From a virus (taxonomy: Duplodnaviria; Caudoviricetes), in the IMG/VR virus record IMGVR_UViG_3300018430_000021, positions 227,103 through 291,102 of that record: a stretch of DNA of 64,000 nt; one strand, 5' to 3'. The translations under genes and the position numbers were made by a program. The number at the start of each line of letters is the position of its first letter. The first letter of the stretch is position 1. Positions 40,382-60,613 of this stretch are shown piece after piece. A model generated the notes under the pieces. That model had not been told where the DNA came from and ran no database searches. It saw nothing but the letters and a program-made list of their open reading frames with translations.

Positions 40382-43300
40382 AATACCTAATATAGAAAAA
40401 GAGTTGACTCTCGTCAACCCTTTTTATTACTTCAATATCGTATCGAACTGCGATGAAAGTTCCTTGCTTGACTTTTCCTTGACAGGATCCGGGAAAAGAC
40501 AATTAGAAATGCCGTCGATAATAATATTACATATACCAACAATAATCATAATTGGTAAAGCAACAACCATAATACCGCAAGACATCAAGTTAATAAACAA
40601 CAATATTGAAACCTTGAAAATATATCGTTTTTCTTCAGGAGACAGACTATCATATTTCGTTCTTTGAGAAAAGTTATACTTATTCTTGAATCCGAGACTG
40701 AGTAATGCCGTACTCCAGAATACAATATGTAAACTTGCCCATGGAATAGTAATATGATTAAAACCGTCAGACAATATCCAAATAAAACAAACAAGTACCC
40801 CTACAACTTCCGCAAGAACGAATAAAATATAAAGTCCTGCTGCAACTGTAAGATCAGATCCAGCATTACTCAAGCCGGAATCAAAGAAAAACTTCATTGT
40901 AAATTCTTGATACTTACGAAACATATTTACTCCTCGGGTTCAAGCGTACCACATGCATAACAACGTTCATGACAAACCGGACAGCTATAGGTATATTCAA
41001 ATTCATTCATACCTGTCTGAATATACTCACACTTATATTTCGGAACGTTAAATTCTGTTTCACATTTATTACATCGAAACTTAAGCTTTGTCGGCTGCTT
41101 GGTAATTTCAGCTTCGCCGACAACAGTTGTTGGTTTCTTTTCGACAGGTCCAAGACAGGTTATAGATTTGATGGCCACAAAATGCTTATACTTACTTTTT
41201 GCGAAATCAATAATTGCCTTGGTCAATGCATCGCCAAGCAGGCTTGATTCGAAAATTTCTTCAGCATAATTATCATCCCAGTCATCAAAACCCATATAAC
41301 CGTCATAGGTCTGATAATGAATGTTTATCTTATACCTTTGTTTCATATTACTTCTTCTTAGCCGCCTTCTTAGCTGCTTTCTTGGCTTCGCGTTCGGCCT
41401 GCTTTGCAGCCAACTTAGCTTCGCGTTCAGCTTCCTTCTTGGCCTTTTCGGCGAGCTTCGCTTCATACTTCTTGATAACCTGCAAACGGCCCTTGAGGGT
41501 AGAATGCTTACGCCTATCATCCATATCATACAGGTCACGCAATACGTCATGATAATCATCTGAATTATCCTGAGTATACTGTCTCAGTTCCAAGCCTGCA
41601 CGAAGAATATCAATAAACGCATTAAAATTCTTCGGGTCAAACTGCTCCATGATAAACTGCGTCTGCGGAGTAGTATAGAAATGCCTTGTATCTTCCTTGT
41701 TGGCACAGAAACGGTTAAAGCCGTAAGTGACTTCAAGCTTGTTCGCCTTCGCATGCTTCACGAAATGCCCAGGATTCGGACAGGACTTATACACATGCAA
41801 ATAAAACTGGTCTTCGCCTTTCTGGAGAATAATCGCATAGTCGTCACGAACCGGATTATAGTCGTTGCCGAGTCGCTTCATCGCTTCTTCACGAGATTCC
41901 TTCTTGCTTTCTTCAATAATTTCGAAACCGTATTCCTTAACGACATTTTTGATCGCATTGAATTCGTCTTCCGTAAAACGAATTTCGGTCGCATAGACCT
42001 TATTGTATGCACCGAAAACATCATAAATTTTCTGGTCACCGGTACCGTAAAGGTCCTGATAGAACGACTTTACCTTATCTTCGCGAAACATGGAAGGGTT
42101 AATCTTTACCGCTTCGTTAAGTTCGTTAAGACATTCCTTTGCGTAATCTTCTGTAATCAATGCGCCCATTATAAGCTCCTTTTTGTTTATAATATAGAAA
42201 ATGGATTGACTTTTGTCAACCCATAATGTTCCTATCTATTATAAGTGCTTTCCATTAAAAGATACATATTATAATTACCTATGTGCCATTTAATTTGTTT
42301 AATAATATTTTCTTCTGTGATTTTGACCTTATAACGACCTTTCGGATAATCATTAGTTAATTTCACGATTTCACCGGTTTTATCAAAATCGGCTGTCATA
42401 ATAGTTCCTAATAATATGGGTGTAAGGATAGAACACGAATCTTCATAATCCTCGAAATAACAACATGGATAAATACTACGACATATAGTTTTAAACGCTT
42501 CTCTATTCATTGATATAAAACCTATTAATTATGTGTAATCATTCATAACGCAGTTTGTATTATTATCCGGTGTATCAGTATCTAGCTTGTTACCGCCTTT
42601 AATACTACAACCACAACATCTTTGATAAACGGCGTTTTTAATAAGCGGCATATCTGCTTTCATCGGTACATAAAGACCATGTGCCTTATAGTTTTCTTTA
42701 CAGAATGTTTGTCTTTCCCACTTATGTAATATATCAAAATTATCGTAATTTTCAGAACTTTTGTCTCCCCAATGAGCACAAAATAGTTCAAGAGCGTCTC
42801 TTTCAGACGAGCAAATATAATGTTTAGGTGTAAAATCAAGACATTCGCTCACGCTAACGATATATTCTTTAGAATTAAATACATCAATAATATTTGTATG
42901 AATAAGCGGCGGTCCAATAAACGTATTAATAAGATACGGAAGATAAATCTCAAAATAAATTCGCGGACAATCGACAAACGGAACAGGATGTGACCTAAGA
43001 CCAATTCCTATATAGTCGTCACATACGTTTTCAAGATAAACACCGTCATTGTCATATCGGAATCCATTAAAATATCCAATATCCGGCGGATCGTTTACGA
43101 ATTTTCTACCAATACCTGCCCATCGGGTAGCGGTAGTTTCGATAACGTTCCTGACATATTTTTCGATAGCAATAGCCGACTGGCCTACCAGCTCTTCCGG
43201 AAATTTATTTTTACTCGGGTCTTTTAACCACAAGTAAGAATCAATAAAAAGCTTAAGAGCTTTAAACGGGTCGTTTTTATACTCAACCGTAAAATCTTCA

Positions 43301-43400
43301 AGCTTATCTATCTTCTTACACAAATGACGATTACGATTATATTTATTTTCCATTTGCATAATATAACAAAAGGGTAGACTTTCGTCAACCCTTTATTTAG

Positions 43401-43472
43401 TCCCAAGGCCGGAACTCGAATCCGAACAAACAGAATCACAATCTGCTGTGCTACCAATTACACCACCGCGGG
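43401..43472 (-). tRNA. tRNA-His(GTG) with A73
   Basis: Loop TTGTGAT; encoded -1/73 are T/A rather than G/C. Confidence 0.85.
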
Positions 43473-43487
43473 GATGAAAAATTTTAG

Positions 43488-43560
43488 AGCCCTATGCCGG
43501 GTTCGAACCGGCGCCACCTGCTTGGAAGGCAGAAATGCTAAGCCACTACACCAATAGGAC
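43488..43560 (-). tRNA. tRNA-Gly(TCC)
   Basis: Loop CTTCCAA, U73. Confidence 0.9.
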
Positions 43561-43569
43561 ATATTTTAG

Positions 43570-43643
43570 AGCCCTAGACGGAATTCGAATCCGTAAACCT
43601 TCTCCATGGCAAGGAGACATTCTACCAGTTGAACTACTAGGAC
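43570..43643 (-). tRNA. tRNA-Gly(GCC)
   Basis: Loop TTGCCAT, U73. Confidence 0.9.
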
Positions 43644-43650
43644 ATTTTAG

Positions 43651-43723
43651 AGCAATAGATGGGACTCGGACCCACAACCTATTCCATGGCAAGGAATCGC
43701 TCTACCAGTTGAGCTACTACTGC
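43651..43723 (-). tRNA. tRNA-Gly(GCC)
   Basis: Loop TTGCCAT, U73. Confidence 0.9.
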
Positions 43724-43867
43724 ATAAATGACAGCTTTACCAAAAAGGACTTTTCCGTTTTAACTGCCGAAGGTCTCTCAGTCATTTCTATGGCAGACTG
43801 ATTAGGGCCGCCGGTTTTCTTCTTCCCATCCCTCGTACGAAAGCCGGCAAACATCGGATGCATTTCG

Positions 43868-43940
43868 TGCCACTACCTGGACTCGAACCAGGACCCGCTG
43901 ATTAAGAGTCAGCTCGACTAGGCCATTATCATATAGAGGC
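43868..43940 (-). tRNA. tRNA-Lys(CTT)
   Basis: Loop CTCTTAA. Confidence 0.85.
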
Positions 43941-43952
43941 AAAAATTTTTAG

Positions 43953-44043
43953 TGGACTCGACGGGATTCGAACCCGTATGCGGTGGCTTCCTTGCGTACA
44001 GCCTCCTGGTAATCCGGTTATTCACTCTTTAGCCTACGTGCCC
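43953..44043 (-). ncRNA. tRNA-like RNA with Ala-type acceptor (G3:U70, A73) and no clear anticodon
   Basis: GGGCACG/CGAGTCC-A acceptor, normal T-arm, central arm capped by a GCAA tetraloop. Confidence 0.6.
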
Positions 44044-44053
44044 ATAATTTTCG

Positions 44054-44126
44054 TACCCCAGGAAGGACTCGAACCTTCAACCCACTGATTAAGAGTCAGC
44101 TGCGCTACCAATTGCGCCACTGAGGC
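44054..44126 (-). tRNA. tRNA-Lys(CTT)
   Basis: Loop CTCTTAA. Confidence 0.9.
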
Positions 44127-44253
44127 ATAAATGAAGGTTTTTGATTTTGTGCAGAAGCTACCTACAAACTCCAGGAACTCAATTATTTCAATTCGCCGAG
44201 CTGACGAATAACTACCCATGTTTTTGGTAGGTCAAAGTAGTCGCAGACCATAG

Positions 44254-44333
44254 TACATCAGACAGGGATCGAACCTGCATTTTCAGCTCCAGTTACGGTT
44301 ACAAGATTCGTAGTCTTGCTCGGCTACTGATGT
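44254..44333 (-). tRNA. D-armless tRNA-Arg(ACG)-like
   Basis: Perfect 7-bp acceptor, CAAGA-CTACGAA-TCTTG anticodon arm, T-arm; only 8 nt in place of the D-arm and a 23-nt variable region. Confidence 0.65.
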
Positions 44334-44341
44334 ATAATTCG

Positions 44342-44416
44342 CGGGATCGAAGGGACTTGAACCCTCAACTTTCAGATCGACAATCTGACGCTCTAACCAA
44401 ATTGAACTACGACCCC
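44342..44416 (-). tRNA. tRNA-Asp(GTC)
   Basis: Loop TTGTCGA, G73. Confidence 0.9.
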
Positions 44417-44419
44417 AAA

Positions 44420-45187
44420 TTATTCATATTTACCAATTAAATTTTTATTAGAACTAAAATGTCTTCTTTTTGTATTAGATTTAAAAATTGGTATATATTT
44501 TTTAAATCGCACATAAATTGCATTTTTTAAAACATGTAATTCATTTGCAAAATCTTCAAGTTTATAGTAATTTCCTGAATGATATTTGTCCCATAATTCC
44601 CTAGATAATTTCAAAGATTCATTATATCTTGTAATTGTAAATGTTGTTTTATGTTTTTTATGTTTTTTATGTTTTTTTACACCATATACAATTTTGTTTG
44701 ATTCACCATGAAAAAGGTTTCGACCTTCAATCCAGAAATCTTCTAATGGTTTTTCTTTAAACTTCTTAGATTCTCCAGTATTACGATTTGTATACCATTT
44801 AGTTCCAAACTGTGAATTTTTATTACCTTGTTGATTCTTACTTGTTATTTTACTTATCGTTTTTGCAAACTCCATGCGTAATGCTTCATATGCACGAGAA
44901 TTTATATAACGATGTTTTTCTTTAGTCGTTTGCCCTTGCATTCGCCAAAGTGCACATAACATTTTATTTCTTTCAATAGTTCCTTTATCATACATTTTAA
45001 CAAGTAACCAATGACAGATAAAATGTTCACGTGCAGTTAATCTAACAAGATTTTCATTATCGTTTGTACCTCCTAATGATTTTGGTTGAATATGATGTTT
45101 TTCATAATAACCTACATATCTGTTCCCATTTTCTGTTTCCCTTTTTGCTTTTTCAATTATCTTATAATATATAGCTTTATAATTCAT
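44420..45187 (-). CDS. free-standing HNH homing endonuclease inside the tRNA operon
   Basis: YEKHHIQPKSLGG..D..NLVRLTAREHFICHWLL; AT-rich. Confidence 0.85.
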   Translation of the reverse strand: MNYKAIYYKIIEKAKRETENGNRYVGYYEKHHIQPKSLGGTNDNENLVRLTAREHFICHWLLVKMYDKGTIERNKMLCALWRMQGQTTKEKHRYINSRAYEALRMEFAKTISKITSKNQQGNKNSQFGTKWYTNRNTGESKKFKEKPLEDFWIEGRNLFHGESNKIVYGVKKHKKHKKHKTTFTITRYNESLKLSRELWDKYHSGNYYKLEDFANELHVLKNAIYVRFKKYIPIFKSNTKRRHFSSNKNLIGKYE

Positions 45188-45245
45188 ATATTATATATAA
45201 TTTTTTCGTTTTCCGAACCTGTCAAATATAATTAGACAGACTTAG

Positions 45246-45316
45246 CGGTCTCAACGGGTCACGATCCCGTACCTCCAGCGTGACAAGCTGGTGTCCATCC
45301 ATTAAACGATGAGACC
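45246..45316 (-). tRNA. tRNA-Asp(GTC), atypical T-loop
   Basis: Loop TTGTCAC, G73; T-loop ATCGTGA. Confidence 0.8.
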
Positions 45317-45352
45317 AAAATAAAAAAGATTCCTGTGAGCGACACAGGAATC
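45317..45352 (-). terminator. attenuator terminator of the Asp/Arg/Lys/Gly/His tRNA operon
   Basis: GATTCCTGTG-TCGCT-CACAGGAATC followed by TTTTTTATTTT. Confidence 0.85.
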
Positions 45353-45378
45353 AATCTAAAACTTTTTACAGTTAAAAA

Positions 45379-45480
45379 CTAGATGACCCTGTGCTTGTGT
45401 CGATCCTTATCATGCTTACCGAAACCTCGTCCGTCGCGGCGAGTCTTGCAATCATGAGTGTCAACTACAAACTTAGTCAT
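45379..45480 (-). CDS. leader peptide MTKFVVDTHDCKTRRDGRGFGKHDKDRHKHRVI
   Basis: RBS AAAGGA; 5 Asp, 4 His, 5 Lys (all AAG), 5 Arg (4 CGN), 3 Gly. Confidence 0.85.
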   Translation of the reverse strand: MTKFVVDTHDCKTRRDGRGFGKHDKDRHKHRVI

Positions 45481-45530
45481 TTCGTTTTTCCTTTCTATTA
45501 TATATAAAAATTTTTTTCCTGTTTTCGCAA

Positions 45531-45657
45531 AATAAACAGCGAGCAGTAACTTGTGGAAATAAGAGTTGGACTCGAACCAACGATCTTTGCATTGCTGCAA
45601 CGCTCTAACCAACTGAGCTATCTCATTGATTATAGGAACCGCTTGTGCTGTTCTATT
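45531..45657 (-). ncRNA. anticodon-less tRNA-like RNA closed by the GCA-N6-GUUCCUAU module
   Basis: D- and T-arms intact; anticodon arm is TTGCA-GCAA-TGCAA; outer stem carries the module. Confidence 0.7.
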
Positions 45658-46906
45658 GTGTTTTAACGTTGTTAAATATAGTAAAGTTTTTTCCTTTTGT
45701 AAACCCTATTTTTAAAAAATTTTTTAAGTTCTGTATTTCCTAAAGTTTATTTAATGCTATTTCAGTATCAAGTCCCATTACACGAAGCCTAATCTTGGCC
45801 GGATCTTTCAACTTCAGGATGTCTTCGATTATATCCAAACTTTTTGCTATGAAAATTGGCATACACCAGATTTGAGACTTCGATTTATAATCTTCATACA
45901 GAATTAACTGCCAGATAACGTTATCAGATGCCAATCCCGTTGCATAAATCCCATCGTTAATGTTTTTCGGATATAAGTATAAATCTCCAGACTCATTAAT
46001 GATTCTCTGGAGAACTTCCATCTTGGCGAACGCACGTTTTACATTGTTTTTTGTCATAGCACCTTGTCCAGCATAATTTCCAGTTTCATATTTTCATATT
46101 TGGCCTTGAGACGGTCAAACGTTTTGCACTTGTGAATTTCTGGAATTAACTTTAACAATAAGTTCTTTTCTTCACTGTATTTAATTACCAAATCATTTCC
46201 AAGTTCATATTTATTGGTTACATCTTGAAACCGGATATAATCAGAGTAAACATGCATTTCAATATTATTAAACTTACGGAATGTAGCATAGTTATGACGA
46301 TAGTCAAGGGCAAAATTTTCCTTGGCCAATAACTTATCTACTTTTTCTTGAAAACGTGATAACATATTTTATAAAATAGAAAAAAGGTTGACTTTCGTCA
46401 ACCCTTTAATATTTCCAGGAATTAAATTTAGATTTTCTCATTTTCTTTTTTAAGTGCATTTCCGAGTTTTTCGATGTCATTGACAAATAGCTGAACAATT
46501 TCATCTACAGTTCCAAGTGGAACCATGCCATTATCAGATTTCAACTTGAATAGCTTATCTTTCAGCTCATCTGACACAAATTCGGTCCAGACGTGTTTTG
46601 GAAAATTTCCAATATTTTCTTCATTAGTTATATCTTCCAATACTTTGTTCATTATTTAATCTCTTTTACTTGAACCGTGGCATCTATTTCACCAAGAAAT
46701 AACTCATTCATTGATGCACTATAATATGACTTACTTTTTACACAGTAAGACATCTTACTCTTTGCTGAGCGTAAATCAGCAAAATGTGTAGCTTGGCTTA
46801 AATCAGTTACCCAACTAACATAACCCTTTTTAGAACCCCAATAATAGACTATACCATCAACAGTTCTACAAAGAATCCATGTTTTTAATTTCGCATTGAA
46901 CATTAC

Positions 46907-47365
46907 TTACCATCCATTGGAATGCTTTATTTGCTCATAACGGTCCACAACAGCACTCGTCACTGCTCTTTGTGTACGTTCATTTATACCGGATAGAGTC
47001 TTCGGTTCGACAATACTGTATTCTCTTGTAGTGTCATTATACCTAAGATTGAGACCCTTGAAAGTCAGGAACCAAGTATCGTTCGTAACCTCAACGTCGG
47101 CCATAGCAACAAGATCCGGGTCGTTAGAGGCCTCACAGAAGTCGAGACGTAAAACCTTGACCTTAATCTGGTCACTCATAGTTGCCTCCAACTTAGCCTT
47201 TGCTTTCTCGCCTTCCAGAGACGTACTGGTCCAGCCACCTTTGTCGTTCAAGTACATGACATTGACACCGGCTGTTGTACTGTTTGCAATACATGCTTCA
47301 AGGTCCTTGTCACCGATATATTCTTTTAACTCTGTGAGTTCATCAATTATTTTACTTATTTTCAT
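46907..47365 (-). CDS. protein with C-terminal SpoVG-like domain
   Basis: LVAMADV...LTFKGL.L......I..P...I.......V..AVV..Y pattern. Confidence 0.4.
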   Translation of the reverse strand: MKISKIIDELTELKEYIGDKDLEACIANSTTAGVNVMYLNDKGGWTSTSLEGEKAKAKLEATMSDQIKVKVLRLDFCEASNDPDLVAMADVEVTNDTWFLTFKGLNLRYNDTTREYSIVEPKTLSGINERTQRAVTSAVVDRYEQIKHSNGW

Positions 47366-60250: not shown

Positions 60251-60613
60251 TATGGAAACTTTGAAAAACCGTTTTCAAACACACTGCCGGAATCCCGATT
60301 CTCCACCGGCCATGACGTCTATCAACTGCACATTCTATCGGTCGACTTCTTATAGGGTACAAACTCCGTCATCTAGCATTTTATTGATCGTCTAGCTATA
60401 TCAAACTCACAAAATACTCTTCATGCCACGCTGCTACATGAATTCAGCGCTCACTAAACGTAGTATACATCGATTTCTCTATACAAGAGGTTTAGCTCAA
60501 CGCGTTGTCAGGCCAGGGCACTTACGCATTCCCGAGTGTTATCCCAGCTCTTCAGTCTTAATGATGGTGCGTCCGTCAAAAAGCACACGCGCTTAAGTAT
60601 ATTATATATAAAA

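Follow-up and report, generated by a model that had tools for sequence, protein, structure and literature searches.

We consider, with good confidence, that the minus-strand interval 45703-45317 of an uncultured jumbo phage from the ruminant gut (Duplodnaviria; Caudoviricetes) is a ribosome-mediated leader-peptide transcription attenuator gating an array of tRNA genes for Asp, Arg, Lys, Gly, and His. The tRNAs of this array would probably be made only when the codons of a short leader open reading frame (ORF) are decoded slowly, in the style of the trp operon. We infer leader translation, termination, regulated read-through, and the physiological trigger alike from the DNA sequence and from modeled RNA folds. 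More tentatively, and with somewhat less than even confidence, we propose that a clade of roughly 400-kb ruminant-gut phages possesses a genome-wide, isoacceptor-resolved, self-tuning network of tRNA supply, in which about seven operons with codon-matched attenuators, together with an attenuated alaS gene whose product is free of Ala, would detect and replace, codon by codon, host tRNAs lost to anticodon nucleases or host shutoff.

Organization of the locus

The window, by which we mean the whole stretch of DNA that was analyzed, comprises 64,000 nt (positions 227,103 to 291,102 of IMG/VR record IMGVR_UViG_3300018430_000021) and constitutes the last 64 kb of this 291-kb record. Its G+C content is ~37%, the minus strand carries nearly all genes, and 33 of the 42 tRNA genes called in the record by ARAGORN lie within it. 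In the direction of transcription, the parts of the putative attenuator are as follows, in window coordinates.

45703-45675, minus strand: promoter P1, sigma-70-like (TTTACA, 17 nt, TATATT), a member of a repeated promoter family
45627-45554, minus strand: tRNA-like RNA between P1 and the leader (ARAGORN; Rfam tRNA model, 56.6 bits)
45515-45496, minus strand: conserved A-run/T-run element ending in a TATAAT-like hexamer (45502-45497)
45493-45489, minus strand: Shine-Dalgarno site AAGGA, 9 nt before the ATG
45480-45379, minus strand: leader ORF of 33 codons plus TAG (ATG at 45480, TAG at 45381-45379)
45393-45383, minus strand: region 2, the ORF tail, predicted to pair with region 1 (the 5' end of the ORF, from 45480) or with the 5' arm of the terminator
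45378-45353, minus strand: spacer of 26 nt with a small hairpin, which the antiterminator helix would enclose
45352-45317, minus strand: predicted intrinsic terminator and U-run (10 pairs, 5 of them GC)
45316-45245, minus strand: tRNA-Asp(GTC), first copy, beginning 1 nt past the U-run

Promoters of the P1 type head all four leader/array units of the 291-kb record, and the leader ORF is promoter proximal, with a Shine-Dalgarno site and a start codon of its own. The acceptor, D, and T arms are unremarkable in the tRNA-like RNA that separates P1 from the leader, and CCA is encoded, but the anticodon loop, capped by GCAA, has only 4 to 6 nt; this RNA is not a normal decoder, may be a processing handle or a mimic, and keeps its position ahead of the equivalent leader in 10 related loci. 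Two roles are conceivable for the A-run/T-run element, that of a second promoter and that of an AU-rich enhancer of translation. The 13-nt core of this element is found at four places in the 291 kb, namely, at three leaders and at window position 60612, and a one-base variant heads the fourth leader; were the hexamer at 45502-45497 part of a promoter, transcription would start ~7 nt downstream and the 5' untranslated region would measure only ~10 nt. The terminator consists of a 5' arm (region 3, 45352-45343), a 5-nt loop (45342-45338), a 3' arm (region 4, 45337-45328), and the U-run (45327-45317), and since tRNA-Asp begins at 45316, immediately beyond, it has no space for a promoter of its own.

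The tRNA array behind the leader

After the first tRNA-Asp, the array extends on the minus strand to 43400, in the order HNH-like ORF, Asp, Arg(ACG)-like RNA, Lys, Gly, and His.

45187-44420, minus strand: HNH-like homing-endonuclease ORF (Pfam HNH, E = 1e-3, just below the cutoff)
44416-44341, minus strand: tRNA-Asp(GTC), second copy (ARAGORN; Rfam tRNA model)
44333-44254, minus strand: Arg(ACG)-like RNA (Rfam tRNA model, 33.6 bits; threshold, 29)
44126-44053, minus strand: tRNA-Lys(CTT) (ARAGORN)
44043 to ~43950, minus strand: tRNA-like RNA with a T arm and acceptor stem and no anticodon loop (weak match to the tmRNA model)
43940-43867, minus strand: tRNA-Lys(CTT) (ARAGORN)
43723-43650, minus strand: tRNA-Gly(GCC) (ARAGORN)
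43643-43569, minus strand: tRNA-Gly(GCC) (ARAGORN)
43560-43487, minus strand: tRNA-Gly(TCC) (ARAGORN)
43472-43400, minus strand: tRNA-His(GTG) (ARAGORN)

The HNH-like gene has promoter-like sites directly upstream and splits the array, so that the attenuator may directly gate only part of it. This insert is missing from the related loci and from contigs of RNA libraries, which diverge from the window at 45242. The Arg(ACG)-like RNA was missed by ARAGORN in its default mode and, with introns allowed, was called as an odd intron-bearing tRNA. Its acceptor stem and 5-bp anticodon stem are perfect and its loop is of the Arg type, but the variable region measures 23 nt and the D arm is nearly absent; a canonical tRNA-Arg(ACG) is present in these arrays in six related loci, of which five have it immediately behind the second tRNA-Asp. 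We therefore regard the RNA at 44333-44254 as aberrant: it may not decode, and it may be either decaying or an unusual functional form. Farther into the array, between Lys and Gly, lies a structured spacer of ~140 nt (43866-43724, minus strand).

Codon match between the leader and its own array

The original prediction, made from the sequence alone, held that the leader matches its array down to the choice of synonymous codon, and its counts were accurate. Asp (5), His (4), Lys (5), Arg (5), and Gly (3) make up 22 of the 33 residues and most of codons 3 to 30; Gly is encoded once by GGA and twice by GGT ahead of one Gly(TCC) and two Gly(GCC) genes, and Arg by CGC (twice), CGA (twice), and AGG (once) ahead of an Arg(ACG)-like RNA that, as judged by its score of 33.6 bits, is real. 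All five Lys codons are AAG, and ARAGORN called two Lys(CTT) genes and no Lys(TTT) gene in the array. The further argument that exclusive use of AAG is striking in an AT-rich genome did not survive, because AAG accounts for 59% of the Lys codons in long ORFs and the genome is not AAA biased. Five AAG codons out of five give, by themselves, a P value of only ~0.07; the Lys match draws its strength instead from the related loci described below, where Lys is encoded by AAG in leaders of Lys(CTT) arrays and mainly by AAA in leaders of Lys(TTT) arrays.

The leader codons are cognate to tRNAs encoded downstream. Of the 32 sense codons following the start, 17 have a matching tRNA among those that ARAGORN called in the leader's own array, compared with a background of 0.186, the mean over the genome's long ORFs (P = 1.2e-5), and counting the Arg(ACG)-like RNA raises coverage to 21 of 32. 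The other three arrays of the genome read no more than 2 of these 32 codons each. The ORF is kept in 12 distinct relatives, in which the position of the stop is fixed and the stop codon itself is TAG, TGA, or TAA.

Paralogous units and the alaS gene

When the record was searched against itself, the promoter and ribosome-binding region proved to be repeated, revealing three further units with their parts in the same order.

29304-29163, minus strand: unit B, a 28-codon leader rich in Leu, Ser(AGY), and Trp and a terminator, ahead of a Trp/Leu/Ser(GCT) array (29151-28432)
51031-50859, minus strand: unit D, a 37-codon leader rich in Ala, Glu, and Phe and a terminator, ahead of a Glu/Ala/Phe array (50773-49909)
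Record positions 215310-215215, minus strand, 11.8 kb before the window: unit A, a Tyr/Cys/Ser/Met leader ahead of a Tyr/Cys/Met/Ser(NGA) array

In each unit the leader mirrors its own array, which reads 18 of 27 codons in unit B (P = 2e-11), 21 of 36 in unit D (P = 3e-8), and 13 of 29 in unit A. When all four leaders were scored against all four arrays, the diagonal of the matrix (13/29, 18/27, 17/32, and 21/36) gave P values of 1.6e-5 to 1.6e-11, and every off-diagonal cell was at or below background. The correspondence extends to the two Ser codon families: all Ser codons are AGY ahead of Ser(GCT) in unit B, and all are TCN ahead of Ser(GGA/TGA/CGA) in unit A.

The unit A leader has an in-frame TAA at codon 9. 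Recoding by a suppressor tRNA was considered and rejected, since ARAGORN found no such tRNA and two orthologous leaders are without an in-frame stop; on inspection by eye, the orthologous leaders have a Ser codon at this site. The TAA is more probably a nonsense change that alters or disables the sensor, or else a sequencing error.

A further candidate for leader-mediated control precedes a synthetase gene, within 53200-53036.

53165-53106, minus strand: alaS leader of 19 codons with four consecutive Ala codons, followed by a predicted terminator (53070-53048) and a U-run
53022-51685, minus strand: alaS, encoding an alanyl-tRNA synthetase catalytic core of 445 residues

The enzyme contains no Ala among its 445 residues, compared with an Ala content of 5.4% in long ORFs of the genome. 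Promoter spacing suggests that the mRNA of the alaS leader is nearly leaderless, and in the predicted fold the Ala codons themselves pair weakly with the terminator arm (z = -0.9). An Ala-free synthetase behind a leader of Ala codons would fit a phage built for conditions in which aminoacyl-tRNA is scarce.

Related loci in IMG/VR

A promoter pattern built from P1 recovered 75 related loci from IMG/VR, whose contigs reach lengths of 415,750 and 424,163 bp. Within them, units were selected by structure only, as a U-run hairpin shortly before a tRNA combined with an ORF of 12 to 70 codons ending no more than 75 nt ahead. This yielded 64 units, representing 45 distinct sequences that fall into about seven classes, named here for the tRNAs of their arrays.

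Trp/Leu/Ser(GCT), with or without Cys and Gln(CTG)
Asp/Arg(ACG)/Lys(CTT)/Gly/His, the class of the leader at 45480, with a conserved leader
Glu/Ala/Phe, with or without Val
Tyr/Cys/Met/Ser(NGA), with or without Ile(GAT) and Gln(CTG)
Arg(TCT)/Gln(TTG)/Lys(TTT), with or without Ile(TAT)
Asn/Pro/Thr
Ala/Asp/Arg(ACG)/Lys(CTT), a hybrid found at locus L041, with a leader rich in exactly Ala, Asp, Arg, and Lys

When 15 leader types were compared with 15 arrays, the mean share of codons read by a leader's own array was 0.54, compared with 0.16 after permutation, and none of 100,000 permutations reached the observed value. An array that gains tRNAs for Cys, Gln, Val, or Ala is matched by a leader that gains the corresponding codons; in Trp/Leu leaders, for example, Cys and Gln codons occur only where Cys and Gln(CTG) tRNAs are present in the array. 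The claim of a match at the level of the synonymous codon was borne out here on a broader basis, for in split codon families 90 codons were those read by the leader's own isoacceptor and 14 were others, a contrast whose significance is indicative only, as the leaders are related and not independent. Besides Lys, the pattern is apparent for Arg (CGN with Arg(ACG) and AGA with Arg(TCT)), Gln (CAG with Gln(CTG) and CAA with Gln(TTG)), and Ile (ATA with Ile(TAT) and ATT with Ile(GAT)).

Contigs from ruminant-gut metatranscriptomes, at 95 to 99% identity, span the leader, the terminator, and tRNA-Asp in one piece; such contigs show neither ends, strand, nor regulation and could stem from DNA carry-over, and we have not counted them as expression. 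They do place close relatives of the phage in bovine and sheep gut samples. A blastn search of positions 45200-45700 against deposited phage genomes gave no match, and a search for relatives by way of the alanyl-tRNA synthetase protein found none.

Predicted terminator and antiterminator folds

Folds were computed with ViennaRNA for the four units of the genome and then for the 45 distinct units among the related loci. Taken by itself, the terminator hairpin of the Asp/His/Lys/Arg/Gly unit has a predicted energy of -14.5 kcal/mol. The competing antiterminator, in which 45393-45383 pairs with 45355-45343, is predicted at -18.2 kcal/mol, and in these folds the leader segment CACAGGG (45393-45387) pairs with the 5' arm of the terminator, as originally proposed. 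Three states were modeled for each of the four genomic units. In the complete RNA without a ribosome, the ORF tail pairs with the start of the ORF and the terminator forms, in all four; when the RNA is free from ~30 nt before the stop codon and the 3' arm has yet to be made, the tail pairs with the terminator 5' arm at -18.1 to -19.0 kcal/mol, again in all four; and when a ribosome occupying the stop codon hides the tail, the terminator is the sole remaining fold, at -10.3 to -16.6 kcal/mol. In energy models, therefore, the locus has an intrinsic terminator ahead of the tRNAs, an antiterminator that excludes it, and a 1:2 pairing.

The same three states recur throughout the related loci. With the tail free, the terminator 5' arm pairs with it in 41 of the 45 distinct units; with a ribosome at the stop, the terminator forms in all 45; and with no ribosome, the complete terminator stem forms in 41 and most of the stem in two more, the ORF tail pairing with the 5' part of the ORF in 43. 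Native tails fold better than shuffled ones across the 45 (median z = -3.2), and the spacer between stop codon and terminator measures 22 to 33 nt in every one of them. A gap of 5 to 14 nt separates the terminator from the first tRNA throughout the Asp/His/Lys/Arg/Gly class and in most units elsewhere, so that the array should be reachable only by read-through.

Within the Asp/His/Lys/Arg/Gly class, nine of the 11 bases of region 2 (CAGGGTCAT) are invariant in alignment A1, and its partner in the terminator arm has two variable positions, both confined to the hybrid locus L041; third-codon positions, the spacer, and the loop do vary. There is almost no compensatory variation within this class, a single double change having been seen by eye in the terminator of L041. 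Because alignment A1 is too conserved for compensatory changes to be counted, own and cross pairings were compared between classes. Terminator sequences vary from class to class, and the ORF tails vary along with them: a tail pairs with its own terminator arm at a mean of -12.5 kcal/mol and with those of other units at -7.8 kcal/mol, and none of 20,000 permutations was as good. Structural support for the attenuator is thus a matter of this between-class comparison together with the energy models.

Proposed mechanism

In the mechanism that we propose, RNA polymerase would start at the upstream promoter or promoters and transcribe the 33-codon ORF. Were the Asp, His, Lys-AAG, Arg-CGC/CGA, and Gly codons decoded rapidly, the leading ribosome would reach the stop codon and cover region 2, the hairpin at 45352-45328 would form, and transcription would cease in the U-run, 1 nt before tRNA-Asp. 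Were the aminoacyl-tRNAs scarce, the ribosome would lag, the free tail would pair with the terminator 5' arm, and polymerase would enter the tRNA genes; with no ribosome at all, the tail would pair with the start of the ORF and the terminator would form. Stalls at codons 26 to 30 would themselves cover region 2 and hence favor termination rather than read-through, and the effective sensing window would comprise roughly codons 7 to 25. As the products would be the tRNAs that read the test codons, newly made tRNAs would speed decoding and close a self-limiting loop in which the array is made according to need. Candidate triggers are host shutoff, heavy codon demand late in infection, and the depletion of host tRNAs by anticodon nucleases or other tRNA-directed defenses.

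Candidate signals and alternative explanations

A ribosome in a leader senses aminoacyl-tRNA, for which low charging and low tRNA are indistinguishable, and the attenuator could therefore be correctly identified and yet respond to amino acid starvation, as in biosynthetic operons, rather than to isoacceptor abundance; the Ala-codon leader of alaS and its Ala-free product would fit a scarcity of Ala-tRNA of either kind. We consider starvation an unlikely signal. A shortage of amino acid is not relieved by extra tRNA, and the codons for Lys, Arg, Gln, Ser, and Ile are divided among the leaders as the isoacceptors are divided among the arrays (the 90-to-14 contrast given above, with its proviso on relatedness), a division that amino acid sensing does not need. 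This distribution of synonymous codons argues that isoacceptor supply, rather than amino acid supply, is what the leaders sense.

The codon match might alternatively have no regulatory meaning, the ORFs being small functional peptides or untranslated and the hairpin being the terminator of a small gene or a leaky constitutive terminator. The peptide is indeed well conserved within the Asp/His/Lys/Arg/Gly class, but such a reading would have to account for seven unrelated compositions, every one of which reflects the array behind it even in the choice among synonymous codons, for ORF tails complementary to their own terminator arm in nearly all units, and for tRNAs that begin 5 to 14 nt beyond a terminator without a promoter, and we find it very improbable. 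Equally hard to credit is the idea that leader translation acts not on termination but on how the tRNA precursor is processed or how stable it is, for instance by making nuclease sites accessible: tRNA precursors do undergo heavy processing and the leader is flanked by tRNA-like RNAs and structured spacers, but a GC-rich U-run hairpin and a mutually exclusive antiterminator, kept in all classes, are marks of termination control.

Relation to known regulatory systems

The thr leader (Thr and Ile) and the ilvGMEDA and ilvBN leaders (Ile, Leu, and Val) are multivalent leader-peptide attenuators of enterobacteria. In common with them, the phage unit has a ribosome-binding site ahead of a short ORF, regulatory codons of more than one amino acid, predicted 1:2, 2:3, and 3:4 alternative hairpins, and an intrinsic terminator directly before the genes. 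In contrast to these leaders, its targets are tRNA genes and not biosynthetic enzymes, it reads five amino acids with synonymous codons chosen by isoacceptor, and it is phage borne, as one of about seven parallel units that jointly cover the phage tRNA set. In E. coli, the pheST attenuator with its pheM leader regulates an aminoacyl-tRNA synthetase through codons for the cognate amino acid, and the phage unit would resemble it in placing a component of the translation machinery under an attenuator whose leader peptide has cognate codons; since the target of pheST is a synthetase, its closer analogue in the window is the Ala-codon leader and terminator of alaS (53165-53036, minus strand). T-box riboswitches (RF00230) likewise sense tRNA status with codon-anticodon specificity and act through a terminator/antiterminator switch, but they bind uncharged tRNA directly, without translation, and have a conserved fold, whereas the sensor of the phage unit would be the ribosome.

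A cmscan search of positions 42500-47000 at E values of up to 1 returned tRNA and three weak, unrelated matches only, with no match to the T-box or to the Rfam leader families for His, Leu, Thr, Trp, and Phe. The phage unit, as we interpret it, is like the curated leader families in function and a member of none of them in sequence.

Knowledge of phage tRNA genes goes back more than 50 years, and clusters of them are familiar from T4- and T5-like phages. As in those clusters, the arrays described here are interspersed with homing endonucleases and small stable RNAs, and in both cases the phage tRNAs are thought to substitute for host tRNAs that are lost or cleaved. We know of no leader-peptide attenuator for the T4/T5-like clusters and, more generally, of no mechanism that matches the expression of phage tRNAs to need. 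Phage tRNAs have been tied to escape from tRNA-cleaving defenses (PMC10264068, PMC11464382, PMC11555353). Full-text literature searches revealed no published account of leader-peptide attenuation of tRNA genes, whether phage or cellular. A leader before the tRNA-Phe genes of E. coli, considered as a possible precedent, was rejected: upstream of K-12 pheV, only a promoter adjoins the tRNA and a leader ORF is absent, and the searches gave no relevant literature match for such a leader. Relative to the published record, the control principle, attenuation, is known, and its proposed targeting of tRNA genes would be new.

If our interpretation is correct, this would be the first case known to us in which tRNA genes are governed by how fast the codons that they serve are decoded. 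Textbook attenuation would gain a new class of target and act as a direct homeostat that adjusts tRNA supply isoacceptor by isoacceptor. It would also explain the sorting of tRNAs by isotype into separate operons in these phages, and the leader could be read as the phage's forecast of which host tRNAs will be lost. Because its parts are short and self-contained, the element might also be put to other use as a codon-specific sensor.

Other noncoding elements in the window

Three further stretches of the minus strand contain noncoding elements. The unit D terminator is followed directly, at 50856-50780, by a sequence resembling tRNA-Phe(GAA), whose acceptor stem is imperfect and which ARAGORN does not call. 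Two consecutive small units occupy 51665-51216, each made up of its own TTGACA/TATATT promoter, ~70 nt of conserved sequence, and a tRNA-like gene whose anticodon arm holds ~40 additional nt; ARAGORN calls neither gene. At 60612-59973, the leader-type AT-rich element is followed by no ORF and by ~640 nt of noncoding sequence, with four tandem repeats of ~32 nt at about 60250-60130, and then by tRNA-Met.
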